The notes under the pieces were generated by a model. It ran no database searches and was not told the DNA's origin. It worked only from the letters and a program-made list of their open reading frames with translations. A stretch of 15,804 bases of DNA from a virus, in UHGV virus genome UHGV-0041830; one strand, written 5' to 3'. This document shows, one piece after another, positions 1 to 15,804 of this stretch. A program made the position numbers and the translations under genes. Within the stretch, counting starts at the first letter, position 1. Each line of letters begins with the position of its first letter.

Positions 1-1068
1 CTGTCCTGATTGATGTGAACGGCGTTCCGCTTCGGGAGAGCCTCAGCTACACCGGTGGCGGTGCAGGATTTGGCGGGCAAATGGCAGAGTGGTTGCCACC
101 CTCGCAGAGTGCCGATGCGGCCCTGCTGCCCGCGTTGCGTCTGGGGAATGCCCGTGCAGATGATCTGGTGCGCAATAACGGAATAGCGGCTAATGCGGTG
201 GCTCTGCATAAGGATCACATTGTCGGGCATATGTTTCTGATCAGCTACCGTCCGAACTGGCGCTGGCTGGGGATGCGGGAGACCGCGGCAAAAAGTTTTG
301 TCGATGAGGTGGAGGCGGCCTGGTCAGAATACGCAGAAGGGATGTTTGGTGAGATCGACGTGGAAGGGAAACGCACGTTTACGGAATTTATCCGTGAAGG
401 TGTGGGCGTTCATGCGTTTAACGGCGAAATCTTTGTGCAGCCGGTCTGGGATACGGAGAGTACGCAACTGTTTCGTACGCGTTTTAAAGCCGTGAGTCCG
501 AAACGGGTGGACACGCCAGGACACGGTATCGGGAACCGTTTTCTGCGGGCCGGTGTGGAGGTTGATCGATATGGCCGTGCCGTTGCGTACCATATCTGTG
601 AGGATGATTTTCCTCGCTCCGGGAGTGGACGATGGGAACGGATCCCGCGTGAACTACCCACCGGGCGTCCGGCCATGCTGCATATTTTCGAGCCGGTGGA
701 GGACGGGCAGACCCGTGGAGCCAATCAGTTTTACAGCGTTATGGAACGGCTGAAGATGCTGGATTCCCTGCAGGCAACACAGCTTCAGTCGGCCATAGTG
801 AAGGCGATGTATGCAGCGACGATTGAAAGTGAACTTGATACCGAAAAGGCCTTTGAATATATCGCCGGTGCGCCGCAGGGGCAGAAGGATAATCCGCTTA
901 TTAATATTCTGGATAAGTTCTCCACCTGGTATGACACGAATAGCGTGACGCTGGGCGGTGTCAAAATTCCGCACCTTTTCCCCGGTGATGATCTGAAACT
1001 TCAGACCGCGCAGGATTCAGACAATGGATTTTCGGCGCTTGAACAGGCGCTGCTGCGGTATATCGCCG
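1..1068 (+). CDS. B: Portal protein (lambda gpB-like), 5'-partial at window edge, 3' side cut by N10 gap
   Basis: Open frame from window start (frame of nt 3). Translation (VNGVPLRESLSYTGGGAGFGG...HICEDDFP...) matches the lambda portal protein B as I recall it. Position immediately upstream of C is as in lambda. Confidence 0.9.
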
Positions 1069-1078
1069 NNNNNNNNNN
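1069..1078. other. Assembly gap (N10); flanks 835-1068 and 1079-1312 are near-identical 234-bp copies with SNPs
   Basis: Run of 10 n. Sequence after the gap restarts at a point 234 bp before the gap (ttgataccgaaaaggcctttgaatatatcgcc...) with scattered substitutions. Confidence 0.95.
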
Positions 1079-1824
1079 TTGATACCGAAAAGGCCTTTGA
1101 ATATATCGCCGGCGCGCCACAGGAGCAGAAGGATAATCCGCTTATTAATATTCTGGAGAAGTTTTCCAGCTGGTATGACACGAATAACGTGACACTGGGC
1201 GGTGTCAAAATTCCGCACCTTTTCCCTGGTGATGATCTGAAACTACAGACTGCGCAGGATTCAGACAATGGATTTTCTGCGCTTGAACAGGCGCTGCTGC
1301 GGTATATCGCCGCCGGTCTTGGCGTTTCCTACGAACAGTTGTCCCGTGATTACTCGAAGGTCAGTTACTCAAGTGCCCGCGCCTCCGCCAATGAGTCGTG
1401 GCGCTATTTTATGGGGCGGCGAAAATTTATTGCGTCCCGGCTGGCCACGCAGATGTTTTCCTGCTGGCTGGAAGAGGCACTTCTTCGGGGGATTATTCGT
1501 CCGCCACGGGCACGTTTTGATTTTTATCAGGCGCGATCAGCCTGGTCACGGGCAGAGTGGATTGGTGCCGGAAGAATGGCCATTGACGGGCTCAAGGAAG
1601 TCCAGGAATCAGTGATGCGCATTGAGGCCGGACTGAGCACGTATGAGAAAGAGCTGGCGCTGATGGGCGAGGATTATCAGGACATTTTCCGCCAGCAGGT
1701 CAGGGAATCTGCAGAGCGGGAAAAAGCCGGACTCTCACGTCCGGTGTGGATAGCGCAGGCGTATCAGCAGCAGATAGCGGAGAGTCGCAGGCCGGAAGAG
1801 GAGACAACACCACGTGAGACGTAA
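1079..1824 (+). CDS. B: Portal protein gpB, C-terminal part on post-gap segment
   Basis: In-frame continuation of the portal sequence (codon boundary at 1081), stop TAA 1822-1824. The first ~78 codons repeat the last codons before the gap. Confidence 0.9.
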
Positions 1825-3297
1825 TCTTTCACACATTATTGCAGCAGCATTCAATGAACCGCTGCTTCTGGAGCCCGCCTATGCGCGGGTTTTCTTTTGC
1901 GCGCTGGGGCGCGAGATGGGGGCAGCAAGTCTTTCGGTACCACAACAGCAGGTACAGTTTGATGCTCCCGGAATGCTGGCTGAAACGGACGAGTACATGG
2001 CCGGAGGTAAACGACCGGCCCGTGTTTACCGGGTGGTGAACGGTATTGCGGTACTGCCGGTGACCGGCACGCTGGTGCACCGGCTGGGTGGTATGCGGCC
2101 ATTTTCCGGAATGACAGGCTATGACGGCATTGTCGCCTGTCTTCAGCAGGCAATGGCGGATAGCCAGGTGCGGGGCGTACTGCTGGACATTGACAGTCCG
2201 GGCGGGCAGGCCGCCGGCGCGTTTGACTGCGCTGACATGATTTACCGCCTCCGTCAGCAGAAGCCGGTCTGGGCACTGTGCAATGACACGGCCTGTTCTG
2301 CAGCCATGCTGCTGGCGTCGGCCTGCTCCCGACGGCTGGTTACCCAGACATCCCGTATCGGTTCCATTGGCGTGATGATGAGCCATGTCAGCTATGCCGG
2401 TCATCTGGCGCAGGCCGGTGTGGATATCACGCTGATTTACTCAGGGGCGCACAAGGTGGATGGCAATCAGTTTGAAGCGTTGCCGGCAGAGGTTCGCCAG
2501 GACATGCAGCAGCGGATTGATGCGGCGCGCCGGATGTTTGCCGAAAAAGTGGCGATGTATACCGGTCTGTCTGTTGATGCAGTCACGGGAACAGAGGCCG
2601 CTGTTTTTGAAGGTCAGTCCGGCATTGAGGCCGGGCTGGCGGATGAATTAATCAATGCGTCGGATGCCATCAGTGTGATGGCCACGGCGCTGAACAGTAA
2701 TGTCAGAGGAGGCACTATGCCGCAATTAACTGCAACGGAAGCCGCCGTGCAGGAGAACCAGCGAGTGATGGGGATCCTGACATGCCAGGAAGCGAAAGGA
2801 CGTGAACAGCTTGCCACGATGCTGGCAGGACAACAGGGCATGAGCGTTGAACAGGCCCGGGCGATTCTGGCCGCGGCGGCACCGCAGCAGCCGGTGGCAT
2901 CCGCGCAGAGTGAAGCCGATCGCATTATGGCGTGTGAAGAAGCGAACGGTCGTGAACAACTGGCGGCAACGCTGGCGGCGATGCCGGAGATGACGGTGGA
3001 AAAAGCCCGCCCGATCCTGGCGGCTGCACCACTGGCGGATGCCGGGCCCTCGCTTCGTGATCAGATCATGGCCCTGGATGAGGCAAAAGGGGCAGAAGCG
3101 CAGGCTGAAAAACTGGCGGCCTGCCCGGGAATGACCGTGGAGAACGCCCGGGCTGTGCTGGCTGCGGGATCAGGTAAGGCAGAACCGGTCTCTGCATCCA
3201 CAACCGCCATGTTTGAACATTTCATGGCGAACCATTCACCGGCAGCGGTACAGGGTGGCGTGGCACAGACGTCAGCAGACGGTGATGCGGACGTGAA
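1814..3297 (+). CDS. C: Prohead protease/scaffold gpC (ClpP/S49-like serine peptidase family), 3' side cut by N10 gap
   Basis: GTG start at 1814 overlapping the portal stop by 11 nt. N-terminus RRNLSHIIAAAFNEPLLLEPAYARVFFCALG resembles lambda C (MTAELRNLPHIASMAFNEPLMLEPAYARVFFCAL...). C-terminal third carries Nu3-like repeats. Confidence 0.88.
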
Positions 3298-3307
3298 NNN
3301 NNNNNNN
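3298..3307. other. Assembly gap (N10); flanks 2988-3297 and 3308-3617 are ~310-bp near-identical copies
   Basis: Run of 10 n. Post-gap sequence agatgacggtggaaaaagcccgcccgatcctgg... repeats 2988 onward with roughly 8% substitutions. Confidence 0.95.
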
Positions 3308-3639
3308 AGATGACGGTGGAAAAAGCCCGCCCGATCCTGGCTGCTTCACCGCAGGCGGATGCCGGACCATCACTCCGTGATCAGATCATGGCACTGGATG
3401 AGGCAAAAGGGGCTGAGGCGCAGGCTGAACAGCTGGCTGCCTGCCCGGGAATGACAGTGGAGAGCGCCCGGGCTGTGCTGGCTGCGGGATCAGGTAAGGC
3501 CGAACCGGTCTCTGCATCCACAACCGCCCTGTTTGAACATTTCATGGCGAATCATTCACCGGCAGCGGTGCGGGGTGGCGTGTCACAGACGTCAGCAGAC
3601 GGTGATGCGGACGTGAAAATGCTCATGGCCATGCCATGA
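3308..3639 (+). CDS. nu3: 3' end of gpC / Nu3 scaffolding region (post-gap segment, 5'-partial)
   Basis: Codon boundary at 3310, stop TGA 3637-3639. Translation (...LRDQIMALDEAKGAEAQAEQLAACPGMTVESARAVLAAG...ADGDADVKMLMAMP) matches the pre-gap C tail and the lambda C/Nu3 C-terminus. Confidence 0.78.
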
Positions 3640-3675
3640 AGTCAGTGCTGACCATCAATATGAGGTTTTAACAAA

Positions 3676-4023
3676 ATGGTGACGAAAACCATCACTGAAC
3701 AGCGTGCGGAAGTACGTATTTTTGCCGGTAATGATCCGGCTCATACCGCCACAGGCAGCAGCGGGATTTCCTCGCCAACACCGGCACTGACGCCCCTGAT
3801 GCTGGATGAAGCCACCGGGAAACTGGTGGTCTGGGATGGACAGAAAGCCGGTAGTGCGGTTGGCATACTGGTACTGCCGCTTGAAGGCACAGAGACGGTG
3901 CTGACCTATTACAAGTCGGGGACCTTTGCGACGGAGGCAATCCGCTGGCCTGACAGTGTGGATGAACACAAAAAGGCAAATGCCTTTGCCGGCACAGCCC
4001 TGAGTCACGCGGCTCTGCCGTAA
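3676..4023 (+). CDS. D: Head decoration protein gpD
   Basis: 115 aa. GAGG Shine-Dalgarno ~10 nt upstream of ATG. Motifs NDPAHTATG, TPLMLD, KLVVWDG, AVGIL, YKSGTF, KANAFAGTA match lambda D (110 aa). Confidence 0.92.
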   Translation: MVTKTITEQRAEVRIFAGNDPAHTATGSSGISSPTPALTPLMLDEATGKLVVWDGQKAGSAVGILVLPLEGTETVLTYYKSGTFATEAIRWPDSVDEHKKANAFAGTALSHAALP

Positions 4024-4080
4024 CACGTTATCAGGCCACCATGGTGACCTGACTGATTTCTGAATGAAAGGAACTGATTT

Positions 4081-5109
4081 ATGGGATTGTTTACGACCCG
4101 CCAGTTACTCGGTTATACCGAACAAAAAGTTAAATTTCGTGCGCTGTTTCTGGAGCTGTTTTTCCGCCGTACGGTGAATTTCCACACCGAAGAGGTGATG
4201 CTGGACAAAATTACCGGAAAAACGCCGGTGGCGGCCTATGTCTCCCCGATCGTTGAAGGAAAAGTGCTTCGCCATCGCGGTGGTGAAACCCGCGTGTTAC
4301 GTCCGGGCTACGTCAAGCCGAAACACGAATTTAATTACCAGCAGGCGGTTGAGCGCCTTCCTGGTGAAGATCCGGCTCAGCTGAACGACCCGGCCTACCG
4401 TCGTCTGCGTATCATTACCGATAACCTCAAACAGGAAGAGCACGCCATTGTCCAGGTGGAAGAAATGCAGGCGGTGAATGCCGTGCTGTATGGCAAATAC
4501 ACCATGGAAGGGGATCAGTTTGATACTGTCGAGGTGGATTTCGGGCGCTCTGAAGGAAATAACATTGAGCAGGCTGACGGTAAAAAATGGTCTGAGCAGG
4601 ACCGTGATACGTTTGATCCGACGCATGATATTGACCTCTACTGCGATCAGGCCAGCGGCCTTGTGAATATCGCCATTATGGACGGTACGGTCTGGCGTCT
4701 GCTGAATGGCTTTAAGCTGTTCCGCGAAAAACTGGATACCCGTCGCGGCTCAAATTCACAACTCGAAACGGCAGTGAAAGATCTGGGCGCAGTGGTGTCC
4801 TTCAAGGGGTATTACGGCGATCTGGCCATTGTGGTGGCGAAAACGTCTTATGTGGCAGAGGACGGTACCGAAAAACGTTATCTGCCGGAGGGCATGCTGG
4901 TGTTGGGGAATACGGCGGCAGAGGGGATTCGTTGCTATGGTGCCATTAAGGATGCACAGGCGTTGTCTGAAGGAGTGGTGGCTTCTTCCCGTTACCCGAA
5001 ACACTGGCTGACCGTGGGCGATCCGTCCTGTGAATTCACCATGACGCAGTCCGCTCCGCTGATGGTGCTGCCGGATCCGGATGAGTTTGTGGTGGTACAG
5101 GTGAAATAA
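4081..5109 (+). CDS. E: Major capsid protein gpE
   Basis: 342 aa (lambda E 341 aa). AAAGGA RBS. Long identical stretches to lambda E (YVSPIV, PGYVKPKHE, DPAYRR, IVQVEEMQAV, KLDTRRGSNS, LETAVKDLG, TMTQSAPLM, LPDPDEFV). Confidence 0.95.
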   Translation: MGLFTTRQLLGYTEQKVKFRALFLELFFRRTVNFHTEEVMLDKITGKTPVAAYVSPIVEGKVLRHRGGETRVLRPGYVKPKHEFNYQQAVERLPGEDPAQLNDPAYRRLRIITDNLKQEEHAIVQVEEMQAVNAVLYGKYTMEGDQFDTVEVDFGRSEGNNIEQADGKKWSEQDRDTFDPTHDIDLYCDQASGLVNIAIMDGTVWRLLNGFKLFREKLDTRRGSNSQLETAVKDLGAVVSFKGYYGDLAIVVAKTSYVAEDGTEKRYLPEGMLVLGNTAAEGIRCYGAIKDAQALSEGVVASSRYPKHWLTVGDPSCEFTMTQSAPLMVLPDPDEFVVVQVK

Positions 5110-5117
5110 TCCGTGAG

Positions 5118-5146
5118 CGGGGGCGAAATGCCCCCGTGTCTTTTTT
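5118..5146 (+). terminator. Intrinsic-terminator-like hairpin downstream of the major capsid gene
   Basis: Stem CGGGGGC (5118-5124), loop GAAAT, stem GCCCCCG (5130-5136), then TGTC followed by TTTTTT (5141-5146), 9 nt after the E stop codon. Confidence 0.5.
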
Positions 5147-5160
5147 CACAGGAGGCTGAG

Positions 5161-5544
5161 ATGGCAACAAAAGAAGAAAATCTGAATCGTCTTCGTCAAC
5201 TGGCTGACCTGCTGGGGCGCGAGGCGGATATGTCGGGGAGTGCTGCGGATATTGCTCAACGTGTGTCTGAGTGGGAAGAGGAGCTTGCTGTTTCCCCGGA
5301 GGGCATTATGCACTCTGATGAGAGCGGGGCTGATCAAAATCACACAGACGATGGTGAGCAGTTGAACAACACGGATGCTCCGGATGATGTTAAAGCCGTC
5401 CGGGTACGGAAGTGCCTGCAAGTAATGGGGTATTGCCCGGAGACAGGTCGTCCCGTTGAGCTGGCGTTACGGGGTATGCGTGTTCTGGTGCCATCATCAC
5501 TGGCAACGGCCATGATACAGCACGGAACGGCTGAATATGCGTGA
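5161..5544 (+). CDS. FI: DNA packaging / head assembly protein FI
   Basis: ATG at 5161 preceded by AGGAGG. Size and position match lambda FI (132 aa). The ORF-track start at 5113 would read through the terminator hairpin and is not used. Confidence 0.8.
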   Translation: MATKEENLNRLRQLADLLGREADMSGSAADIAQRVSEWEEELAVSPEGIMHSDESGADQNHTDDGEQLNNTDAPDDVKAVRVRKCLQVMGYCPETGRPVELALRGMRVLVPSSLATAMIQHGTAEYA

Positions 5545-5890
5545 TTTTCAGAATGCCTTTGATGCTGCCCTCGCCGGGGTAGACAGTACGATCGTTGAAG
5601 TGATGGGGCTCTGTGCGCAGTTCACCTCGGGGGCACAGTGTGGCAGCGAAGTTCAGGGGGTTTTTGATGATCCGGAGTCGCTGGGGTTTGCCGGTGGCGG
5701 GGTCCGTATTGAAGGAAGCAGCCCGTCATTATTTGTGCGGACGGATACGGTTCGTGCCGTGCGGCGTGGTGACACGCTGACCATTAATGGTGAGATATTC
5801 TGGGTGGATCGTGTTTCTCCGGATGACGGGGGCAGCTGTTATCTCTGGCTCAACCGTGGTCAACCACCCGCAGTTAACCGGCGACGATAA
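5537..5890 (+). CDS. FII: Head-tail connector / head completion protein FII
   Basis: 117 aa, same length as lambda FII. GVFDDPE, GVRIEGSSPSLFVRTD, RRGDTLTI, FWVDRVSPDDGGSC, LWL, PPAVNRRR all match. Start overlaps the FI stop by 8 nt. Confidence 0.92.
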   Translation: MRDFQNAFDAALAGVDSTIVEVMGLCAQFTSGAQCGSEVQGVFDDPESLGFAGGGVRIEGSSPSLFVRTDTVRAVRRGDTLTINGEIFWVDRVSPDDGGSCYLWLNRGQPPAVNRRR

Positions 5891-5905
5891 ACGCAGGGTG
5901 AAATT

Positions 5906-6439
5906 ATGGCGATAAAAGGGCTTGATCAGGCGATTGACAATCTGAGCCGGGTTCGTAAAAACGCCATTCCGGCGGCTTCAGCAATGGCCATTAACCGCGT
6001 GGCCACAACGGCGATTAATCAGTCTTCATCACAGGTTGCCCGGGAGACAAAGGTTCGCCGGAAACTGGTTAAGGAACGGTCCAGACTGAAACGGGCGACG
6101 GTCAGAAATCCGAATGCCAGAATTATCGTTAACCGCGGTGATCTCCCTGTGATTAAGCTGGGGATCAGGATGCTGGGGCGTCGCCCGAACAGCATACTTA
6201 AAGCCGGTCAGCATCGGTATCAGCGGGCATTTATTCAGAGATTAAAAAATGGTCGCTGGCATGTCATGCAGCGTGTGGCCGGGAAAAACCGTTACCCCAT
6301 TGATGTGGTGAAAATCCCGATGGCGGCCCCACTGAAACAGGCATTTGATGAGAATGTTGACCGTATCCGGCGTGAACGCCTGCCTAAAGAACTGGCATAC
6401 GCGCTGAAACAACAACTGAGGATTGCAATAAAACGATGA
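5906..6439 (+). CDS. Z: Tail completion protein Z
   Basis: 177 aa basic protein in the lambda Z position between FII and U. AGGGTG RBS. Stop overlaps the U start (ATGA). Confidence 0.88.
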   Translation: MAIKGLDQAIDNLSRVRKNAIPAASAMAINRVATTAINQSSSQVARETKVRRKLVKERSRLKRATVRNPNARIIVNRGDLPVIKLGIRMLGRRPNSILKAGQHRYQRAFIQRLKNGRWHVMQRVAGKNRYPIDVVKIPMAAPLKQAFDENVDRIRRERLPKELAYALKQQLRIAIKR

Positions 6440-6831
6440 AACACACTGACATTCGTGCCGCAGTGCTGGATGCACTCGAGCAGCATGAACACGGGGCGAC
6501 GCTGTTTGATGGTCGCCCCGTTGTTTTTGACGAAGAGGATTTTCCTGCGATCGCGGTTTATCTGACGGATGCAGAGTATACCGGTGAAGAGCTGGATGCA
6601 GATACCTGGCGGGCCACGCTGCATATTGAGGTGTTTTTACCGGCACAGGTACCGGATTCAGAGCTTGATCAGTGGATGGAAAGCCGGATTTACCCGGCGA
6701 TGACCGCGATCCCGGCACTGGCAGGACTGATTACCACGATGGTTACGCAGGGCTATGAGTATCGTCGTGATGACGATATGGCGTTATGGAGTTCTGCAGA
6801 TCTGACTTATTCCATTACATACGAGATGTGA
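6436..6831 (+). CDS. U: Tail tube terminator protein U
   Basis: 131 aa, same length as lambda U. ATGA overlap with Z, positioned just upstream of V. Confidence 0.9.
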
Positions 6832-6838
6832 GGACGAT

Positions 6839-7591
6839 ATGGCAACACCAAATCCCCTTGAGCCGGTAAAAGGTGCCGGTACCACTCTGTGGGTTTACAA
6901 CGGCAAGGGTGATGCTTATGCAAACCCGTTGTCAGACGATGACTGGCAGCGACTGGCTAAGGTGAAGGATCTGACGCCGGGCGAGATGACGGCAGAATCC
7001 TACGATGATAACTACCTGGATGATGAAGACGCGGACTGGACCGCGACCGGGCAGGGGCAGAAATCTGCAGGTGATACCAGTTTTACGCTGGCCTGGAAAC
7101 CGGGAGAGGAAGGCCAGAAAGGGCTTATAGGCTGGTTTGAAAGCGGCGATGTCCGGGCCTATAAAATCCGTTTTCCGAATGGCACGGTGGATGTGTTTCG
7201 TGGCTGGGTCAGCAGTATCGGTAAGGCCGTGACGGCGAAAGAAGTGATCACCCGCACGGTGAAAGTCACTAACGTGGGTAAACCTTCTGTAGCGGAAGAA
7301 CGCAGCAAAATTACGCCGGTCAGTGCGATTAAGGTGACGCCGACATCCGGTACGGTGGCAAAAGGGAAAACAACCACCCTGACGGTTTCTTTTGAGCCGG
7401 AAAGTGCAACCGACAAGACGTTCAGAGCGGTTTCCGCCGATCCGTCGAAAGCCACCATTAGTGTGAAAGATATGACAATTACGGTAAACGGCGTGGCGAC
7501 AGGTAAGGTGCAGATCCCTGTGGTGAGCGGAAATGGTCAGTTCGCCGCAGTGGCTGAAGTCACCGTTACTGAAGCGGGCGCTGCAGGGTAA
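6839..7591 (+). CDS. V: Major tail tube protein V with C-terminal Ig-like domain
   Basis: 250 aa (lambda V 246 aa). GAGGA RBS. The C-terminal ~90 aa ([38 protein letters not shown]...) has the alternating-residue pattern of a bacterial Ig-like (Big_2) domain, as in lambda gpV. Confidence 0.92.
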
Positions 7592-7604
7592 ACGGAGGTA
7601 ATAC

Positions 7605-8476: not shown

Positions 8477-11030
8477 TCTTGTTATTGACCTGAGTCTGGA
8501 TGCTGTCCGTTTCGATGAGCAGATGAGCCGGGTAAGGCGTCATTTTTCAGGTCTGGATACCGACGCCAGAAAAACCGCCAGTGCTGTTGAACAGGGCCTG
8601 AGCCGCCAGGCGCTGGCTGCACAAAAAGCCGGGATTTCCGTCGGGCAGTATAAAGCGGCCATGCGAACCCTGCCCGCACAGTTTACGGATATCGCCACGC
8701 AGCTTGCCGGTGGTCAGAATCCCTGGTTGATCCTGCTGCAACAGGGCGGTCAGGTGAAGGACTCCTTCGGCGGGATGATCCCCATGTTCAGGGGGCTTGC
8801 CGGTGCGATCACCCTGCCGATGGTCGGGGTCACCTCGCTGGCGGTGGCGACAGGTGCGCTGGCGTACGCCTGGTACCAGGGCGACGCCACGCTTTCAGAA
8901 TTTAATAAAACGCTGGTCCTTTCCGGCAATCAGGCCGGACTGACTGCCGATCGTATGCTGACGCTCTCAAGAGCCGGGCAGGCAGCAGGGCTGACGTTTA
9001 ACCAGGCGAGAGAGTCACTGGCAGCCTTGGTGAATGCCGGTGTGCGTGGTGGTGAACAGTTTGATGCCATCAACCAGAGTGTCGCGCGTTTTGCGTCTGC
9101 ATCCGGTGTGGAGGTGGATAAAGTCGCTGAAGCCTTCGGGAAGCTGACCACTGACCCGACGTCGGGACTGATGGCGATGGCGCGCCAGTTCCGTAACGTG
9201 ACGGCAGAGCAGATTGCGTATGTTGCACAGCTGCAGCGTTCCGGAGACGAGGCCGGGGCATTGCAGGCGGCGAACGATATCGCCACGAAAGGCTTTGATG
9301 AGCAGACCCGTCGCCTGAAAGAAAACATGGGAACACTGGAGACCTGGGCGGATAAAACAGGGAAGGCATTCAAATCGATGTGGGATGCCATTCTGGATAT
9401 CGGTCGTCCGGAATCCTCAGCGGATATGCTCGCCAGTGCGCAGAAGGCATTTGATGAGGCGGATAAAAAATGGCAGTGGTACCAGAGCCGGAGCCAGCGC
9501 CGGGGAAAGACCTCCTCTTTTCGTGCGAACCTTCAGGGGGCATGGGATGACCGGGAAAATGCCCGTCTGGGTCTGGCAGCGGCCACGCTGCAGTCGGATA
9601 TGGAAAAAGCCGGTGAACTGGCGGCAAGGGACAGGGCTGAGCGTGAGTCGTCACAGCTGAAGTATACCGGAGAGGCGCAGAAGGCGTATGAGCGCCTGCA
9701 GACGCCGCTGGATAAATATACCGCCCGTCAGAAAGAGCTGAATAAGGCCCTGAAAGACGGAAAAATCCTGCAGGCGGATTACAACACGCTGATGGCGTCG
9801 GCAAAAAAGGATTATGAATCGACGCTGAAAAAGCCGTCAGGTGTGAAGGTGTCTACCGGTGAGCGCCAGGAAGACCGGGCGCATGCAGCCCTGCTGGCGC
9901 TTGAAACCGAGCTCAGGACGCTGGAAAAACACAGCGGTGTGAATGAGAAAATCAGCCAGCAGCGCCGGGATTTATGGGAAGCGGAAAGTCAGTATGTGGT
10001 CCTGAAAGAGGCCGCCACGAAACGGCAGTTATCTGAGCAGGAAAAATCCCTGCTGGCTCATGAGAAAGAGACGCTGGAGTACAAACGCCAGCTGGCTGAG
10101 CTGGGAGACAAGATTGAACACCAGAAGCGGCTGAATGAGCTGGCACAGCAGGCGGCGCGGTTTGAACAGCAGCAAAGCGCGAAGCAGGCGGCAATCAGCG
10201 CAAAAGCCCGCGGCCTCACCGACCGTCAGGCGCAGCGGGAGTCGGAAGAGCAGCGCCTTCGTGAGGTGTACGGTGATAATCCGGCTGCGCTGGCGAAGGC
10301 CACATCGGCACTGAAGAACACCTGGTCTGCGGAGGAGCAGCTTCGTGGAAGCTGGATGGCCGGGATGAAGTCCGGCTGGGGAGAGTGGGCGGAAAGTGCG
10401 ACGGACAGTTTTTCGCAGGTTAAAAGTGTGGCCACGCAGACCTTTGACGGTATTGCACAGAATATGGCGGCGATGCTGACCGGCAGCGAACAGAACTGGC
10501 GGGGATTCACCCGTTCCGTGCTGTCCATGATGACAGAAATTCTGCTTAAGCAGGCAATGGTGGGGATTGTCGGGAGTATCGGCAGCGCTATTGGCGGGGC
10601 TGTTGGTGGCGGCGCATCCGCGTCAGGCGGTACAGCCATTCAGGCCGCTGCGGCGAAATTCCATTTTGCAACCGGAGGATTTACGGGAACCGGCGGCAAA
10701 TATGAGCCAGCGGGGATTGTTCACCGTGGTGAATTTGTCTTCACAAAGGAGGCAACCAGCCGGATTGGCGTGGGGAATCTCTATCGGCTGATGCGCGGCT
10801 ATGCCACCGGTGGTTATGTCGGTACACCGGGCAGTCTGGCTGACAGCCGGTCGCAGGCGTCCGGGACGTTTGAGCAGAATAACCATGTGGTGATTAACAA
10901 CGACGGCACGAACGGGCAGATAGGTCCGGCTGCTCTGAAGGCGGTGTATGACATGGCCCGCAAGGGTGCCCGTGATGAAATCCAGGCACAGATGCGCGAT
11001 GGTGGTCTGTTCTCCGGAGGTGGACGATGA
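8457..11030 (+). CDS. H: Tail tape measure protein H
   Basis: 857 aa (lambda H 853 aa). Long near-identical runs to lambda H (PVGDLVIDLSLDA, GISVGQYKAAMR, NPWLILLQQGGQVKDSFGGMIPMFRGLAGAITLPMVG, the C-terminal glycine-rich segment GGFTGTGGKYEPAGIVHRGEFVFTKEATSRIGVGNLYRLMRGYATGGYVG). Start overlaps the T-frame end by 20 nt. Confidence 0.95.
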   Translation: MSQPVGDLVIDLSLDAVRFDEQMSRVRRHFSGLDTDARKTASAVEQGLSRQALAAQKAGISVGQYKAAMRTLPAQFTDIATQLAGGQNPWLILLQQGGQVKDSFGGMIPMFRGLAGAITLPMVGVTSLAVATGALAYAWYQGDATLSEFNKTLVLSGNQAGLTADRMLTLSRAGQAAGLTFNQARESLAALVNAGVRGGEQFDAINQSVARFASASGVEVDKVAEAFGKLTTDPTSGLMAMARQFRNVTAEQIAYVAQLQRSGDEAGALQAANDIATKGFDEQTRRLKENMGTLETWADKTGKAFKSMWDAILDIGRPESSADMLASAQKAFDEADKKWQWYQSRSQRRGKTSSFRANLQGAWDDRENARLGLAAATLQSDMEKAGELAARDRAERESSQLKYTGEAQKAYERLQTPLDKYTARQKELNKALKDGKILQADYNTLMASAKKDYESTLKKPSGVKVSTGERQEDRAHAALLALETELRTLEKHSGVNEKISQQRRDLWEAESQYVVLKEAATKRQLSEQEKSLLAHEKETLEYKRQLAELGDKIEHQKRLNELAQQAARFEQQQSAKQAAISAKARGLTDRQAQRESEEQRLREVYGDNPAALAKATSALKNTWSAEEQLRGSWMAGMKSGWGEWAESATDSFSQVKSVATQTFDGIAQNMAAMLTGSEQNWRGFTRSVLSMMTEILLKQAMVGIVGSIGSAIGGAVGGGASASGGTAIQAAAAKFHFATGGFTGTGGKYEPAGIVHRGEFVFTKEATSRIGVGNLYRLMRGYATGGYVGTPGSLADSRSQASGTFEQNNHVVINNDGTNGQIGPAALKAVYDMARKGARDEIQAQMRDGGLFSGGGR

Positions 11031-11040
11031 AAACCTTCCG

Positions 11041-11050
11041 NNNNNNNNNN
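11041..11050. other. Assembly gap (N10); flanks 10948-11040 and 11051-11143 are 93-bp near-identical copies (H 3' end and M start)
   Basis: Run of 10 n. atgacatggcccgcaagggtgcccgtgatgaaat... appears on both sides with a few substitutions. The pre-gap side already contains the H stop and an M start codon (ATG 11027). Confidence 0.95.
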
Positions 11051-11129
11051 ATGACATGGCCCGCAAGGGTGCCCGTGATGAAATTCAGACACAGATGCGT
11101 GATGGTGGACTGTTCTCCGGAGGTGGACG

Positions 11130-11459
11130 ATGAAAACCTTCCGCTGGAAAGTGAAACCCGGGATGGATGTGACATCGGCTCCTTCCGTCAGGGAGGTGCG
11201 CTTTGGTGATGGCTATTCCCAGCGTGCGCCTGCCGGGCTGAACGCTGACCTGAAAACGTACAGCGTGACGCTGTCTGTCTCCCGTGAGGAGGCCACGGCG
11301 CTGGAGTCGTTTCTGGCTGAGCACGGGGGCTGGAAGGCCTTTCTGTGGACGCCGCCTTATGGTTACAGGCAGATAAAGGTGACCTGCGCAAAATGGTCGT
11401 CGCAGGTCAGTATGTTGCGTGTTGGGTTCAGCGCAGAGTTTAAACAGGTGGTGAACTGA
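11130..11459 (+). CDS. M: Tail tip protein M
   Basis: 109 aa, same length as lambda M. Start ATGA-overlaps the (duplicated) H stop. Stop TGA overlaps the L start by 1 nt. Confidence 0.9.
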   Translation: MKTFRWKVKPGMDVTSAPSVREVRFGDGYSQRAPAGLNADLKTYSVTLSVSREEATALESFLAEHGGWKAFLWTPPYGYRQIKVTCAKWSSQVSMLRVGFSAEFKQVVN

Positions 11460-12157
11460 TGCAGGATATCCGGCAGGAAACATTGAATGAATGCACCCGT
11501 GCGGAGCAGTCGGCCAGCGTGGTGCTCTGGGAAATCGATCTGACAGAGGTCGGTGGAGAACGTTATTTTTTCTGTAATGAGCAGAACGAAAAAGGTGAGC
11601 CGGTCACCTGGCAGGGGAGGCAGTATCAGGCGTATCCCATTCAGGGGAGCGGTTTTGAACTGAATGGCAAAGGCACCAGTACGCGGCCCACGCTGGCAGT
11701 CTCTAACCTGTACGGCATGGTCACCGGTATGGTGGAAGATATGCAGAGTCTGGTCGGCGGAACGGTGGTCCGGCGTAAGGTTTACGCCCGTTTTCTGGAT
11801 GCGGTGAACTTCGTCAACGGAAACAGAGACGCCGATCCGGAGCAGGAGGTGATCAGCCGCTGGCGCATCGAGCAGTGCAGCGAACTGAGTGCGGTCAGTG
11901 CCTCCTTTGTACTGTCCACACCGACGGAAACGGATGGTGCCGTTTTTCCGGGGCGCATCATGCTGGCTAATACCTGCACCTGGACCTATCGCGGTGATGA
12001 GTGCGGTTATCACGGTCCGGCAGTCGCGGATGAATATGACCAGCCGACGTCCGATATCACGAAGGATAAATGCAGCAAATGCCTGAGCGGCTGTAAGTTT
12101 CGCAATAACGTCGGCAACTTTGGCGGCTTCCTTTCCATTAACAAACTTTCGCAGTAA
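11459..12157 (+). CDS. L: Tail tip protein L (C-terminal cysteine cluster)
   Basis: 232 aa, same length as lambda L. C-terminal cysteine cluster CTWTYRGDECGYHG...CSKCLSGC. Confidence 0.9.
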   Translation: MQDIRQETLNECTRAEQSASVVLWEIDLTEVGGERYFFCNEQNEKGEPVTWQGRQYQAYPIQGSGFELNGKGTSTRPTLAVSNLYGMVTGMVEDMQSLVGGTVVRRKVYARFLDAVNFVNGNRDADPEQEVISRWRIEQCSELSAVSASFVLSTPTETDGAVFPGRIMLANTCTWTYRGDECGYHGPAVADEYDQPTSDITKDKCSKCLSGCKFRNNVGNFGGFLSINKLSQ

Positions 12158-12161
12158 TCCC

Positions 12162-12905
12162 ATGACAGAGACAGAATCAGCGATTCTGGCGCACGCCCGG
12201 CGATGTGCGCCAGCGGAGTCGTGCGGCTTCGTGGTAAGCACGCCGGAGGGGGAAAGATATTTCCCCTGCGTGAATATCTCCGGTGAGCCGGAGGCGTATT
12301 TCCGGATGGCTCCGGAGGACTGGCTGCAGGCAGAGATGCAGGGTGAGATTGTGGCGCTGGTCCACAGTCATCCCGGTGGTCTGCCCTGGCTGAGTGAGGC
12401 CGACCGGCGGCTGCAGGTGCAGAGTGATTTGCCGTGGTGGCTGGTCTGCCGGGGGGCGATTCATAAGTTCCGCTGTGTGCCGCATCTCACCGGGCGGCGC
12501 TTTGAGTACGGGGTGACAGACTGTTACACACTGTTCCGGGATGCTTACCATCTGGCGGGGATTGAGATGCCGGATTTTCATCGCGGGGATGACTGGTGGC
12601 GTCACGGTCAGAATCTCTATCTTGACAATATGGAGGCTACTGGTTTTTACCGTGTCGCACTGACAGAGGCGCAGCCGGGCGATGTGCTGCTGTGCTGTTT
12701 TGGTTCATCGGTGCCGAATCACGCCGCCATTTACTGCGGCGACGGTGAGCTGCTGCACCATATTCCTGAACAACTGAGTAAACGAGAGAGGTATACCGAC
12801 AAATGGCAGCGACGCACACACTCCCTCTGGCGTCACCGGGAATGGCACGCATCTGCCTTTACGGGGATTTGCAACGATTTGGCCGCCGCATCGACCTTCG
12901 TGTGA
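12162..12905 (+). CDS. K: Tail tip assembly protein K, JAB/MPN (JAMM) metalloprotease-like plus NlpC/P60 domains, full-length reading
   Basis: ATG at 12162 is 4 nt after the L stop, open to TGA at 12903-12905. JAMM motif HSHPGGLPWLSEAD (12364-12403) with upstream ESCG (12206-12217). Cys in VTDCYTLF and His residues downstream fit an NlpC/P60 core. The shorter reading from the internal ATG at 12306 is about 199 aa. Confidence 0.82.
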   Translation: MTETESAILAHARRCAPAESCGFVVSTPEGERYFPCVNISGEPEAYFRMAPEDWLQAEMQGEIVALVHSHPGGLPWLSEADRRLQVQSDLPWWLVCRGAIHKFRCVPHLTGRRFEYGVTDCYTLFRDAYHLAGIEMPDFHRGDDWWRHGQNLYLDNMEATGFYRVALTEAQPGDVLLCCFGSSVPNHAAIYCGDGELLHHIPEQLSKRERYTDKWQRRTHSLWRHREWHASAFTGICNDLAAASTFV

Positions 12906-13444
12906 AAACGGGGGCTGAAGCCATCCGGGCACTGGCCACACAGCTCCCGGCGTTTCGTCAGAAACTGAGCGATGGCTGGTATCAGGTACGGATTGCCGGG
13001 CGGGATGCAGGAGAAACCGAATTATCATCCCGTCTTAATGAGCCGCTGGCAAATGGTGCCGTGATCCACATCGTGCCGCGTCTTGCGGGAGCAAAAAGTG
13101 GCGGTGTGTTTCAGGCGGTGCTGGGTGCGGCGTTGATTGCTACGGCAATCTGGATGCCGGGGATCAGTATCGCTTTCAGTGACATTCTCTTTTCAATGGG
13201 TGCGGCGATGACGCTTGGTGGTGTGGCGCAGATGCTGGCACCGAAAGCCAGAACTCCCCGTACACAGACAACGGATAACGGCAAACAGAACACCTATTTC
13301 TCCTCACTGGATAACATGGTTGCCCAGGGCAATGTCCTGCCTGTTCTGTACGGTGAAATGCGCGTGGGGTCACGTGTGGCATCTCAGGAGATCAGCACGG
13401 CAGATGAAGGGGATGGTGGTCAGGTTGTGGTAATTGGGCGGTAA
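12803..13444 (+). CDS. I: Tail tip assembly protein I (variant allele), N-terminal ubiquitin-like domain ending in Gly-Gly
   Basis: 213 aa. N- and C-terminal thirds match lambda gpI. The central segment (DAGETELSSRLNEPLANG...AVLGAALIATAIWMPGISIAFSDILFSMGAAMTLGG) differs from the second copy at 14195-14775. Overlaps K by 103 nt. An alternative start at ATG 12842 is possible. Confidence 0.85.
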   Translation: MAATHTLPLASPGMARICLYGDLQRFGRRIDLRVKTGAEAIRALATQLPAFRQKLSDGWYQVRIAGRDAGETELSSRLNEPLANGAVIHIVPRLAGAKSGGVFQAVLGAALIATAIWMPGISIAFSDILFSMGAAMTLGGVAQMLAPKARTPRTQTTDNGKQNTYFSSLDNMVAQGNVLPVLYGEMRVGSRVASQEISTADEGDGGQVVVIGR

Positions 13445-13517
13445 TATTATTTTACTCATGTTCTAACTAATTTAATATTTATATCGAACACTGATAATTA
13501 TTCTATTGGTTAGCTAT
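13445..13517 (+). promoter_or_regulatory. AT-rich putative promoter/leader of the inserted lipoprotein gene
   Basis: Extremely AT-rich 73 bp. Candidate -35 TTTAAT (13471-13476) and -10 GATAAT (13493-13498) with 16-bp spacer. Weak, unvalidated prediction. Confidence 0.3.
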
Positions 13518-13856
13518 ATGAACAAAACGATTTTATTCTGCACGATTATTGCCTTAACAGGATGTAAATCTTTGGATTACGTAAAATCCGGAAAACCTGT
13601 AATGGAAGGTAATTCATTAAAAAATATTGATGAATTGTCAGGCTGCATATCCAGACAATGGGCTGGTAATGGAACACCTATAACATCCCTTCCTATTGAG
13701 AATGGGGTAAGCCTTTTAGTTCCACAGGCTATGGGGGGATATGATGTTGTGCTTGATATCAAAAAAGCAGGAAATGGCAGTAGTTTTACTCTTTATGAAC
13801 GTGTACCAGCATTAACGCCAAAAATTTTTGCTGATAGTGTTAATGCATGTAAATAA
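13518..13856 (+). CDS. Predicted outer-membrane lipoprotein of unknown function (moron inserted between tail genes I and J)
   Basis: 112 aa. N-terminus MNKTILFCTIIALTG|CKS is a textbook signal peptidase II signal: basic n-region, hydrophobic core, lipobox L-T-G-C, and Lys (not Asp) at +2 after the lipidated Cys. Two further Cys residues. Tandem TAA TAG stops. ~36% GC against GC-rich flanks. Start could alternatively be TTG 13506. Confidence 0.75.
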   Translation: MNKTILFCTIIALTGCKSLDYVKSGKPVMEGNSLKNIDELSGCISRQWAGNGTPITSLPIENGVSLLVPQAMGGYDVVLDIKKAGNGSSFTLYERVPALTPKIFADSVNACK

Positions 13857-13880
13857 TAGTTAATCCTGTCGTAACTCATG

Positions 13881-13908
13881 AGCCGCCTTTTGGGCGGCTT
13901 TGTTGTTT
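13881..13908 (+). terminator. GC hairpin plus T-tract between the moron and J (conserved in the second I-J junction)
   Basis: AGCCGCC (13881-13887), loop TTTTG, GGCGGCT (13893-13899), then TTGTTGTTT. Lies 14 nt upstream of the J ATG. Confidence 0.45.
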
Positions 13909-13922
13909 ATGGAGTGTGAGGA

Positions 13923-14184
13923 ATGGGTAAAGGAAGCAGTAAGGGGCATACCCCGCGCGAAGCGAGGGACAACCTGAAGTCCACGCAGCTGCTGAGTGTG
14001 ATCGATGCCATCAGCGAAGGGCCGGTTGAAGGTCCGGTGGATGGATTAAAAAGCGTGCTGCTGAACAGTACGCCGGTGCTGGACAGTGAGGGGAATACCA
14101 ATATATCCGGTGTCACGGTGGTGTTCCGGGCAGGTGAGCAGGAGCAGACACCGCCGGAGGGATTTGAATCCTCCGGCTCCGAGA
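13923..14184 (+). CDS. J: Central tail fiber / tip attachment protein J, N-terminal 87 codons (copy 1, cut by N10 gap)
   Basis: MGKGSSKGHTPREARDNLKSTQLLSVIDAISEGPVEGPVDGLKSVLLNSTPVLDSEGNTNISGVTVVFRAGEQEQTPPEGFESSGSE matches the lambda J N-terminus almost exactly. GAGGA RBS. Confidence 0.92.
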
Positions 14185-14194
14185 NNNNNNNNNN
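14185..14194. other. Assembly gap (N10) joining a segment ending in J to a segment beginning inside the K/I overlap
   Basis: Run of 10 n. Post-gap sequence accttcgtgtgaaaacgggggctgaagcc... corresponds to 12894 onward, so this is not a simple overlap: the following segment is an alternative copy of the I-J locus. Confidence 0.95.
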
Positions 14195-14775
14195 ACCTTC
14201 GTGTGAAAACGGGGGCTGAAGCCATCCGCGCACTGGCCACACAGCTCCCGGTGTTTCGTCAGAAACTGAGCGACGGCTGGTATCAGGTACGGATTGCCGG
14301 GCGGGACGTCAGCACGTCCGGGTTAACGGCGCAGTTACATGAGACTCTGCCTGATGGCGCTGTGATTCATATTGTTCCCAGAGTCGCCGGGGCCAAGTCA
14401 GGTGGCGTATTCCAGATTGTCCTGGGGGCTGCCGCCATTGCCGGATCATTCTTTACCGCCGGAGCCACCCTTGCAGCATGGGGGGCAGCCATTGGGGCCG
14501 GTGGTATGACCGGCATCCTGTTTTCTCTCGGTGCCAGTATGGTGCTCGGTGGTGTGGCGCAGATGCTGGCACCGAAAGCCAGAACTCCCCGTACACAGAC
14601 AACGGATAACGGCAAACAGAACACCTATTTCTCCTCACTGGATAACATGGTTGCCCAGGGCAATGTTCTGCCGGTTCTGTACGGTGAAATGCGCGTGGGG
14701 TCACGCGTGGTTTCTCAGGAGATCAGCACGGCAGACGAAGGGGATGGTGGTCAGGTTGTGGTGATTGGTCGCTGA
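14195..14775 (+). CDS. I: Tail tip assembly protein I (lambda-like allele), 5'-truncated by gap
   Basis: Codon boundary at 14197, stop TGA 14773-14775. Central segment DVSTSGLTAQLHETLPDGAVIHIVPRVAGAKSGGVFQIVLGAAAIAGSFFTAGATLAAWGAAIGAGGMTGILFSLGASMVLGG matches lambda gpI as I recall it. Confidence 0.88.
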
Positions 14776-14793
14776 TGCAAAATGTTTTATGTG

Positions 14794-14820
14794 AAACCGC
14801 CTCCGGGCGGTTTTATCGTT
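14794..14820 (+). terminator. GC hairpin plus T-tract upstream of J (second copy)
   Basis: AAACCGCC (14794-14801), loop TCCG, GGCGGTTT (14806-14813), perfect 8-bp stem followed by TATCGTTT. Same position relative to the J start as 13881-13908. Confidence 0.45.
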
Positions 14821-14835
14821 TATGGAGCATGAGGA

Positions 14836-15220
14836 ATGGGTAAAGGCAGCAGTAAGGGGCATACCCCGCGCGAAGCGAAGGACAACCTGAAATCATCCCA
14901 GATGCTGAGCGTGATAGACGCCATCAGCGAAGGGCCGGTTGAAGGTCCGGTGGATGGATTAAAAAGCGTGCTGCTGAACAGTACGCCGGTGCTGGACAGT
15001 GAGGGGAATACCAATATATTCGGCGTCACGGTGGTGTTCCGGGCCGGTGAGCAGGAGCAGACTCCGCCGGAGGGATTTGAATCCTCCGGCTCCGAGACGG
15101 TGCTGGGTACGGAAGTGAAATATGACACGCCGATCACCCGGACCATCACGTCGGCAAACATCGACCGTCTGCGCTTTACCTTCGGTGTGCAGGCACTGGT
15201 GGAAACCACCTCAAAGGGGG
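14836..15220 (+). CDS. J: Tail tip attachment protein J, N-terminal part (copy 2, pre-gap)
   Basis: Near-identical to 13923-14184 and to the lambda J N-terminus. Continues ...TVLGTEVKYDTPITRTITSANIDRLRFTFGVQALVETTSKG. Confidence 0.92.
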
Positions 15221-15230
15221 NNNNNNNNNN
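15221..15230. other. Assembly gap (N10); flanks 15128-15220 and 15231-15323 are 93-bp near-identical copies within J
   Basis: Run of 10 n. cgccgatcacccggaccatcacgtcggcaaacat... is present on both sides with substitutions. Confidence 0.95.
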
Positions 15231-15804
15231 CGCCGATCACCCGGACCATCACGTCGGCAAACATTGACCGTCTGCGTTTTACTTTCGGCGTGCAGGCACT
15301 GGTGGAAACCACCTCAAAGGGGGACAGGAATCCATCGGAAGTCCGCCTGCTGGTTCAGATTCAACGTAACGGTGGCTGGGTGACGGAAAAAGACATCACC
15401 ATTAAGGGCAAAACCACGTCGCAGTATCTGGCCTCGGTGGTGGTGGATAACCTGCCGCCGCGCCCGTTTAATATCCGGATGCGCAGGATGACGCCGGACA
15501 GCACCACAGACCAGTTGCAGAACAAAACGCTCTGGTCGTCATACACCGAAATCATCGATGTGAAACAGTGCTACCCGAACACGGCACTGGTCGGCGTACA
15601 GGTGGACTCGGAGCAGTTCGGCAGCCAGCAGGTGAGCCGTAATTATCATCTTCGCGGGCGCATTCTGCAGGTGCCGTCGAACTATAACCCGCAGACGCGG
15701 CAATACAGCGGTATCTGGGACGGAACGTTTAAGCCAGCATACAGCAACAACATGGCCTGGTGTCTGTGGGATATGCTGACCCATCCGCGCTACGGCATGG
15801 GGAA
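15231..15804 (+). CDS. J: Tail tip attachment protein J, continuation, 3'-partial at window edge
   Basis: Codon boundary at 15233. Translation ...PITRTITSANIDRLRFTFGVQALVETTSKGDRNPSEVRLLVQIQRNGGWVTEKDITIKGKTTSQYLASVVVDNLPPRPFNIRMRRMTPDSTTDQLQNKTLWSSYTEIIDVKQCYPNTALVGVQVDSEQFGSQQVSRNYHLRGRILQVPSNYNPQTRQYSGIWDGTFKPAYSNNMAWCLWDMLTHPRYGMG matches lambda J residues ~100-300. Confidence 0.92.

Follow-up and report, generated by a model that had tools for sequence, protein, structure and literature searches.

The lambda morphogenesis module is the closest described biological counterpart of the 15,804-nt stretch of viral DNA analysed here (hereafter the window); from portal to J the gene order and the Pfam and PHROG families are the same, with portal, S49 protease, decoration protein D and capsid E followed, in lambda order, by the genes leading through the tape measure H to J. 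The window is unlike the lambda module in that it mixes two prophages, which are mostly ~78–98% identical and much more divergent across I–J, and in that its module is incomplete at both ends of the scaffold. A second precedent is the repeat artefact of de Bruijn-graph assembly, which the window resembles in three features: the overlap of contig ends spans a variant cluster and a further k−1 bases on either side, allele switching is confined to shared k-mers, and an N run of fixed minimal length stands in for an estimated gap of zero or less. The third precedent is a pair of lambdoid prophages that co-occurs in Escherichia coli MS 110-3, ATCC 11775 and AF18; the parental sequences of the window are exactly the MS 110-3 pair. 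We consider it very probable that the window is a draft scaffold from a k = 35 de Bruijn short-read assembly of an E. coli strain that harbours a pair of similar lambda-like prophages, hereafter denoted prophage A and prophage B.

The window is byte-identical to the entire scaffold GG773035.1 (15,804 nt) of NCBI assembly GCA_000164415.1 which, to judge from its sequence, probably represents E. coli MS 110-3 or a clone thereof. The match was made via the exact H protein; a sequence pattern across the first N run has no hit in viral_contigs or genome_contigs. The scaffold starts exactly 34 nt ahead of the first site that differs between A and B (position 35), and ends at the final base of a 191-nt A/B-identical run, with A and B differing at the very next base. 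Five runs of N, each exactly 10 long, interrupt the sequence:

1069–1078, no strand, N10 placeholder at join 1, N run in the sequence
3298–3307, no strand, N10 placeholder at join 2, N run in the sequence
11041–11050, no strand, N10 placeholder at join 3, N run in the sequence
14185–14194, no strand, N10 placeholder at join 4, N run in the sequence
15221–15230, no strand, N10 placeholder at join 5, N run in the sequence

The first-pass annotation had described five such gaps with near-identical, SNP-bearing flanks, and the overlap positions it gave are correct to the base. Four of the overlaps are ungapped: 835–1068 vs 1079–1312 at join 1 (12 differences in 234 nt, 5.1%), 2988–3297 vs 3308–3617 at join 2 (22 in 310 nt, 7.1%), 10948–11040 vs 11051–11143 at join 3 (4 in 93 nt, 4.3%), and 15128–15220 vs 15231–15323 at join 5 (4 in 93 nt, 4.3%). 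The measured range of 4.3–7.1% lies within the ~3–8% substitutions that had been estimated for restarts of 93–310 bp, and the matches at the joins (93–310 nt at 93–96% identity) are far above chance. At join 4, the contig after the 14185 gap (14195–15220) resumes at the equivalent of 12894, within the overlap of K (12162–12905) and I (12869–13444), in keeping with the return from J to this overlap that had been reported; it repeats I and the beginning of J in the form of a diverged copy, in which ~390–450 nt between the two genes are absent. The spacing between copies at the ungapped joins is 244, 320, 103 and 103 nt; none of the four is divisible by 3, so the reading frames are broken across the gaps, as had been anticipated. 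In finished genomes, all segments of the window are collinear on one prophage, with overlapping coordinates.

The identical flanks at the joins extend for exactly 34 nt before the first difference and after the last (10 of 10 flanks), and each overlap is as long as its variant cluster plus 2 × 34 nt. The overlap lengths are therefore not arbitrary; 34 nt equals k−1 for a de Bruijn graph with k = 35, and each join presents both arms of one graph bubble in tandem around a placeholder gap, or of a short chain of such bubbles:

835–1312, plus strand, join 1, two arms of a single bubble with 12 differences (A arm 835–1068, B arm 1079–1312)
2988–3617, plus strand, join 2, two neighbouring bubbles with a 36-nt identical run between them, flanks of 34 nt each side
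10948–11143, plus strand, join 3, 4-SNP bubble at the H/M boundary (B arm 10948–11040, A arm 11051–11143)
12894–15097, plus strand, join 4, K/I overlap to the start of J (A version 12894–14184, B version 14195–15097)
15128–15323, plus strand, join 5, 4-SNP bubble in J (A arm 15128–15220, B arm 15231–15323)

The order of arms at join 2 is reciprocal, A then B in contig 2 and B then A in contig 3. Join 4 comprises several bubbles; its outermost differences are 12928/14229 and 14150/15063, and outside each of them lie exactly 34 identical nt. The arms of joins 3 and 5, at 59 k-mers, are smaller than many collapsed bubbles.

The contigs delimited by the gaps, and the genes they carry, are:

1–1068, plus strand, contig 1, portal gene (lambda B) without its first 13 nt (Pfam Phage_portal_2)
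1079–3297, plus strand, contig 2, 3′ part of the portal gene (to 1824) and S49 protease/scaffold gene (lambda C, from 1814) (Pfam)
3308–11040, plus strand, contig 3, C 3′ end to H (Pfam and PHROG matches)
3310–3639, plus strand, C 3′ end, contig 3
3676–4023, plus strand, D, contig 3
4081–5109, plus strand, E, contig 3
5128–5544, plus strand, FI, contig 3
5537–5890, plus strand, FII, contig 3
5906–6439, plus strand, Z, contig 3
6436–6831, plus strand, U, contig 3
6839–7591, plus strand, V, contig 3
7605–8036, plus strand, G, contig 3
8063–8476, plus strand, T, contig 3
8457–11030, plus strand, H, complete in contig 3
11051–14184, plus strand, contig 4, M to the 5′ end of J (Pfam and PHROG matches, painting)
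11130–11459, plus strand, M, complete only in contig 4
11459–12157, plus strand, L, contig 4
12162–12905, plus strand, K, contig 4
12869–13444, plus strand, I of A type, contig 4
13518–13856, plus strand, extra ORF between I and J, contig 4
From 13923, plus strand, 5′ end of J, contig 4
14195–15220, plus strand, contig 5, B-type I and 5′ end of J (99.4% to B)
14203–14775, plus strand, I of B type, complete (coordinate mapping onto ATCC 11775 prophage B)
From 14836, plus strand, 5′ end of J of B type (coordinate mapping onto ATCC 11775 prophage B)
15231–15804, plus strand, contig 6, internal fragment of J (pure B type, 100% to B)

The extra ORF between I and J encodes 112 aa and, relative to the lambda order, is specific to prophage A.

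Painting of the window against the MS 110-3 prophages assigned every base to the A or the B allele (~2,470 informative sites, 0 private), and the proposed interleaving of related prophages of one genome is thus borne out as a perfect A/B patchwork. The dominant parent is A in contigs 1, 3 and 4 and B in contigs 5 and 6, with contig 2 an even mixture. The picture of contigs as clean pieces of different phages has to be abandoned, as the contigs are chimeric, with 31 internal A/B switches. Contig 1 has an A backbone (99.6% identity to A, 95.5% to B) with B-allele patches at 191–242 and 833. Contig 2 is built of 11 alternating A/B blocks, with 36 B sites, 30 A sites and none private, and is 98.4% identical to A and 98.6% to B. 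Contig 3, at 99.65% identity to A overall, opens with a B arm (3342–3464), continues on an A backbone interrupted by small B patches (3771–3786, 4131–4137 and 10589), and closes with a B arm (10982–11006). The A backbone of contig 4 contains B patches at 11483, 11890–11971, 12368–12464 and 14042; the second of these, a B arm of 116 k-mers, lies within an A contig. Contig 5 switches from B to A across a 41-nt identical run (15064–15104) and carries an A arm at its end (15162–15186).

The positions of the switches follow a sharp rule. All 31 fall at identical runs of at least 35 nt, four of them at runs of exactly 35, and none occurs in the 82 runs of 20–34 nt; under switching proportional to run length the probability of this threshold is ~2e-5. 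A switch is present at 31 of the 73 identical runs of at least 35 nt (42%), and none of the 79 variant clusters contains mixed alleles. Up to a length of 36, all k-mers of the window are present in A or B; 4 are absent from both at k = 37 and 67 at k = 45. Among the bubbles of the A-backbone contigs, those with arms of up to 100 k-mers were resolved as A in 24 cases and as B in 18, and those with arms above 100 k-mers as A in 17 and as B in one (Fisher p = 0.005 vs shorter arms).

Two lambdoid prophages lie in the finished E. coli MS 110-3 chromosome (NZ_CP146663.1), equally oriented and separated by ~136 kb; prophage A adjoins a truncated ompW near trp, and prophage B adjoins a fragment of icd, together with iss and sitABCD. 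Both carry homologous B-to-J modules. The window has two matching places in this genome, so that of the 'several' lambdoid prophages previously supposed, more than one is correct and the number is exactly two. In the finished MS 110-3, ATCC 11775 and AF18 genomes, each stretch of the module is present once per prophage, in a collinear module of 14,121 nt; tandem duplication of the overlapped stretches is absent from the finished MS 110-3 genome, in agreement with the earlier suggestion that the genes appear broken or duplicated through scaffolding. The repeats around the gaps of GG773035.1 are an assembly artefact and no real feature. ATCC 11775 and AF18 were also tried as parents and gave a correct outline, but left 6 and 13 private sites, respectively; with the MS 110-3 pair, used in their place, none remains. 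Many further complete E. coli genomes have matches to the whole window as well as to contig 5.

Identity between A and B, by count of differing window positions, is ~95–98% where contigs overlap or switch, only ~78% across FI–H, and ~56% across the I–J stretch with the A-only insert. These values refine the earlier estimate of modules 90–97% identical. The high A/B divergence is the reason that contig 3 is unbroken for 7.7 kb.

Two-parent composition, k−1 flanks of 34 nt, a threshold of 35 nt for switching and the lack of duplication in the finished genome are all direct observations, and the following assembly history would account for them. The paths of the two prophages would merge in the graph wherever at least 35 identical bases are shared, leaving bubbles between such stretches. 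Small bubbles would be resolved or popped near-randomly, with the consensus flipping between A and B; random popping of this kind, rather than wrong resolution of repeats, is the probable origin of the internal switches. In large divergent bubbles the prophage A path would be kept, correctly, and five times a bubble, or a short bubble chain, would survive with both arms as contig ends. The scaffolder would then have set the arms in succession and written 10 N as a minimum gap, because the true distance is negative. This last step presumes a minimum-gap convention; the Velvet manual reportedly gives 10 N as the output for any gap shorter than 10 bp, and a literature search returned nothing usable on this convention or on strain MS 110-3. 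An arm length above 100 k-mers was considered as the rule for bubbles that stay open and was rejected, since joins 3 and 5 were retained with arms of 59 k-mers. Two other drafts (L013 and L014) break in the longest identical run, ending inside a 294-nt run in M.

A variant of this history accepts the k = 35 contigs and takes their order, with the fixed N10 spacers, from alignment to a reference phage or genome rather than from read pairs. Such ordering would equally give fixed 10-N spacers and both arms at one reference position, but a 15.8-kb scaffold that ends at graph-node boundaries resembles a local graph or mate-pair product, and we regard the variant as unlikely. The sequence itself does not tell reference-guided from read-pair ordering.

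It is also conceivable, and in our view very unlikely, that the patchwork is biological, i.e. that many short gene-conversion tracts separate the sequenced DNA from the finished MS 110-3 genome and that the contigs are real recombinant haplotypes. Lambdoid prophages are natural mosaics, and the two prophages of ATCC 11775 encode the same large-terminase protein accession. Two elements of the patchwork recur in other assemblies: the B patch with 4 SNPs at the H 3′ end lies within otherwise A-type contigs of three other assemblies, and the 111-nt A/B junction at 3105–3215 is present in five unrelated contigs of metagenome_contigs, with no exact match in genome_contigs or viral_contigs. Some A/B combinations thus exist elsewhere, naturally or as parallel artefacts. 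The specific combination of the window is in no finished genome; the contig-2 haplotype is found in none of 5,426 complete genomes, the closest of which is 99.2% identical, and it has no intact match as a natural haplotype, the best metagenome contig reaching 99.55%. Against gene conversion stand the sharp threshold at 35 identical nt, the coin-flip behaviour of small bubbles where large ones hold the A backbone, the reciprocal crossing of contigs 2 and 3 at the 36-nt run of join 2, and the fact that the switches are the only divergence of a draft with no private SNPs relative to the finished genome. In a more restricted form, ongoing conversion between the co-resident prophages would have made some of the switch junctions real, recombinant sub-populations being caught beside assembler noise. 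We give this an extremely small chance; were it true, the recurrent 4-SNP B patch of H and the 3105–3215 junction would be natural conversion hot spots.

A mixed culture or contamination, with two strains or cells contributing one prophage each, would be expected to yield the same type of graph bubbles; it is extremely improbable, as both prophages reside together in the finished single chromosomes of MS 110-3, ATCC 11775, AF18 and many others, and as the window holds no base foreign to prophages A and B. True tandem duplications within one prophage, with both copies on one molecule and the N10 runs as small unsequenced gaps, have in their favour the look of the window itself, with its direct repeats 103–320 nt apart, and can be dismissed as practically negligible in probability, given the single copy per prophage in the collinear modules of the three finished genomes, the identification of the copies at each join as A and B alleles of loci ~136 kb apart, the exact 34-nt flanks at ten ends, for which there is no biological rationale, the spacings that would disrupt the frames of the essential portal, protease and J genes, and the N runs that keep the copies in the draft from being contiguous.

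Read as a k = 35 draft of two prophages, the scaffold offers no biological discovery and matters as a warning on hybrid and fragmented deposited proteins. The proteins called from GG773035.1 in public databases include portal, protease and J fragments, together with a hybrid D and a hybrid H that are encoded by neither MS 110-3 prophage. Gene and frameshift calls spanning the gaps had been judged unsafe in the first-pass annotation; that judgement stands, but the gaps are not the only hazard, for the internal switches make sequence elsewhere unsafe as well. Gene counts, frameshift or pseudogene calls, SNP typing, recombination inference and prophage comparison based on GG773035.1 will be misleading, also away from the gaps, and the same warning applies to comparable k-mer drafts wherever a strain has paired lambdoid prophages. 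The k−1 flank rule and the k-mer walk test allow fast recognition of this class of artefact from sequence alone. Within G (7605–8036) and upstream of the T ORF (8063–8476), a GGGAAAG heptamer at 8012 is a candidate −1 frameshift site.

The repeats in the window are an assembly artefact and hold no biological novelty. Via the exact sequence of its tape measure protein H, the window was found to be byte-identical to the 15,804-nt NCBI record GG773035.1 (assembly GCA_000164415.1), and it is therefore an entire draft scaffold, not a slice of a longer sequence. Its genes, assigned by Pfam and PHROG matches, all lie on the + strand in lambda order:

Before C, +, portal (B)
Between portal and D, +, S49 protease/scaffold (C)
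3676–4023, +, D
4081–5109, +, E
Between E and G, +, FI, FII, Z, U and V, in that order
7605–8036, +, G
8063–8476, +, T
8457–11030, +, tape measure H
11130–11459, +, M
Between M and I, +, L and K
12869–13444, +, I, A type
13518–13856, +, 112-aa ORF of unknown function, between I and J
After the 112-aa ORF, +, start of J
14203–14775, +, I, B type (second copy), mapped onto the annotated prophage B of ATCC 11775

Five gaps, each of exactly 10 N, lie at 1069, 3298, 11041, 14185 and 15221 (joins 1–5) and divide the scaffold into six contigs. The first-pass annotation had described near-identical flanks at these gaps, with a restart upstream of the previous contig's stop at 1069, 3298, 11041 and 15221; exact lengths and the same coordinates were recovered, each overlap aligning ungapped:

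Join 1, 835–1068 versus 1079–1312, 12 of 234 positions differ
Join 2, 2988–3297 versus 3308–3617, 22 of 310 differ
Join 3, 10948–11040 versus 11051–11143, 4 of 93 differ
Join 5, 15128–15220 versus 15231–15323, 4 of 93 differ

The jump back from J to the K/I overlap at join 4 (14185) was likewise located: contig 5 resumes at the equivalent of 12894, within that overlap, and covers I and the beginning of J a second time, in a version that diverges further and is without the ~390–450 nt between I and J.

Among 5,426 complete E. coli genomes, the finished chromosome of MS 110-3 (NZ_CP146663.1) gave the best whole-window match, closely followed by ATCC 11775 and other isolates, mostly from human and poultry sources. 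In MS 110-3 the module is collinear, spans 14,121 nt and contains no internal duplication; contig 5 aligns at 99.4–99.7% to another locus of these genomes. The two loci are prophages A and B, ~136 kb apart in the same orientation in MS 110-3. Prophage A adjoins a truncated ompW, beside yciE and trp. Prophage B adjoins an icd fragment and has, in its lysis region, the increased serum survival lipoprotein gene iss (3085–3378 of the ATCC 11775 locus L002; 35909–36202 of the MS 110-3 locus L016); alongside, between its tail-fibre remnants and the truncated icd, is the iron/manganese transporter sitABCD (L002 26916–30365; L016 8922–12371).

Each contig was aligned to both MS 110-3 prophages, which differ from one another at ~2,470 positions. 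At every one of these the window has the allele of A or of B, and elsewhere it matches both parents, with no private site (a base matching neither) in 15,754 bases; with ATCC 11775 or AF18, another E. coli with the same prophage pair, as parents, 6 and 13 private sites appear, respectively. In an alignment-free check, all window k-mers up to k=36 are present in A or B, the first missing from both appearing at k=37 (4), with 67 at k=45. These comparisons point to MS 110-3, or a clone of it, as the probable source of the draft. The interleaving of material from more than one related prophage, as proposed in the first-pass annotation, is borne out by painting the contigs, with two prophages found instead of 'several':

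Contig 1, 1–1068, A, with B patches at 191–242 and 833
Contig 2, 1079–3297, even A/B mixture in 11 alternating blocks, with 36 B and 30 A sites
Contig 3, 3308–11040, B arm 3342–3464, then A for 7.5 kb, with B patches at 3771–3786, 4131–4137 and 10589 and a final B arm 10982–11006
Contig 4, 11051–14184, A, with B patches at 11483, 11890–11971, 12368–12464 and 14042
Contig 5, 14195–15220, B, then A after 15063
Contig 6, 15231–15804, pure B (100% identity)

The contigs are thus themselves chimeric, which goes beyond the original proposal. The contig 2 haplotype occurs in none of the 5,426 complete genomes (best match 99.2%).

At all five joins, the identical bases before the first and after the last difference number exactly 34 (10 of 10 flanks). 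Neighbouring nodes in a k=35 de Bruijn graph overlap by k−1, or 34 nt; each overlap is therefore a pair of bubble arms (the A and B versions of a stretch where the two paths part) with k−1 borders, set in tandem. At join 2 two bubbles lie side by side with 36 nt of shared sequence between them, and over this run contigs 2 and 3 cross reciprocally. The scaffold begins 34 nt ahead of the first site at which A and B differ, and its last base closes a 191-nt A/B-identical run, the following base differing between the prophages; the first and last 35-mers of each contig are specific to one prophage, except the scaffold's last, which is shared. The reading of the gaps as scaffolding from related prophages is supported, with the corrections that there are two prophages, that overlap lengths are set by k=35 and that the contigs are chimeric. 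Velvet requires an odd k and writes gaps under 10 bp as 10 N; an equivalent pattern would result from ordering contigs along a reference with a fixed spacer.

Within the contigs, all 31 A/B switches fall across A/B-identical runs of at least 35 nt, in four cases of exactly 35. The 82 runs of 20–34 nt bear no switch, as against switches in 31 of 73 (42%) of those of at least 35 nt (P ~2e-5 under switching merely proportional to run length), and none of 79 clusters of variant sites, separated by at least 35 identical bases, mixes A and B alleles. In contigs 1–4, where A is the backbone, arms of up to 100 k-mers are indistinguishable from a coin flip (24 A, 18 B), whilst among longer arms A outnumbers B by 17 to 1 (Fisher p=0.005 for short versus long). 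These counts are consistent with an assembler that pops or arbitrarily resolves small bubbles and tracks large divergent ones correctly, which would also explain why FI–H (4185–10505; 78% A/B identity) is clean A whilst the portal, protease, D and M-to-K stretches (~95–97%) are patchworks. An arm-length threshold alone does not account for the 59-k-mer bubbles of joins 3 and 5 having stayed open; a 116-k-mer B arm inside contig 4 is also unexplained by it.

There is a small chance that some patches are instead real gene-conversion mosaics. The 111-nt junction 3105–3215 is present exactly in five ENA metagenome contigs (L006–L010: OJTO01000466.1, OEFH01002907.1, OGOU01003273.1, OLYW01000044.1 and OLNK01003118.1), and three other assemblies with the exact H protein (GCA_902838035.1, GCA_000459035.1 and GCA_902841665.1) carry the same 4-SNP B patch at the H 3′ end within otherwise A-type contigs. 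Against this, switching sets in abruptly at 35 nt, small bubbles take either allele as if by coin flip and no private SNP is present, all of which speaks strongly for assembler products as the origin of the switches in the window scaffold. The metagenome contigs could be either natural mosaics or chimeric assemblies of the same prophage pair; the H patch elsewhere is either a tract of natural conversion or an artefact that has recurred. Painting of two of these metagenome contigs gave A/B mosaics at fine scale, with private sites numbering only 7 in L008 and 4 in L009; the match of L008 to contig 2 (99.55%) is higher than that of any complete genome. A mixed culture is unnecessary as the source of the two versions, since single finished chromosomes hold both prophages. 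A true tandem duplication is refuted: the finished genome contradicts it, and copy spacings of 244, 320, 103 and 103 nt, which break frame, make it implausible.

The expectation that B, C, H/M, I and J are broken or duplicated by scaffolding holds for the portal, C and J, which are fragmented or repeated, and for I, present twice; H and M each have one intact copy. D and H, as predicted, are hybrid proteins encoded by neither prophage of MS 110-3. Two contigs of other drafts, KE700829.1 and CADGKK010000035.1, stop at the same position in M, inside the 294-nt stretch (equivalent to 11110–11403) that is the module's longest A/B-identical run; short-read assemblies thus break at this repeat again and again.

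ATCC 11775 has one large-terminase accession, WP_042210311.1, in both prophages (12873–14801 of locus L001; 5657–7585 of L002), whereas the accessions differ between prophages in MS 110-3 and AF18 (WP_000622379.1 and WP_001304453.1); the shared accession suggests that in some lineages the sequences of co-resident prophages have really been homogenised. The 112-aa ORF has no Pfam match, matches PHROG 914 (unknown function) and is annotated in prophage A as a hypothetical protein (WP_001332187.1); prophage B, with an I–J spacing of ~60 nt, is without it, and the ORF has the look of a tail-module insertion of the moron type. A GGGAAAG heptamer (8012–8018), close to the 3′ end of G, a tail chaperone gene, precedes the T ORF, an arrangement that, judged from sequence, appears the same as that of the lambda G/G-T programmed −1 frameshift.
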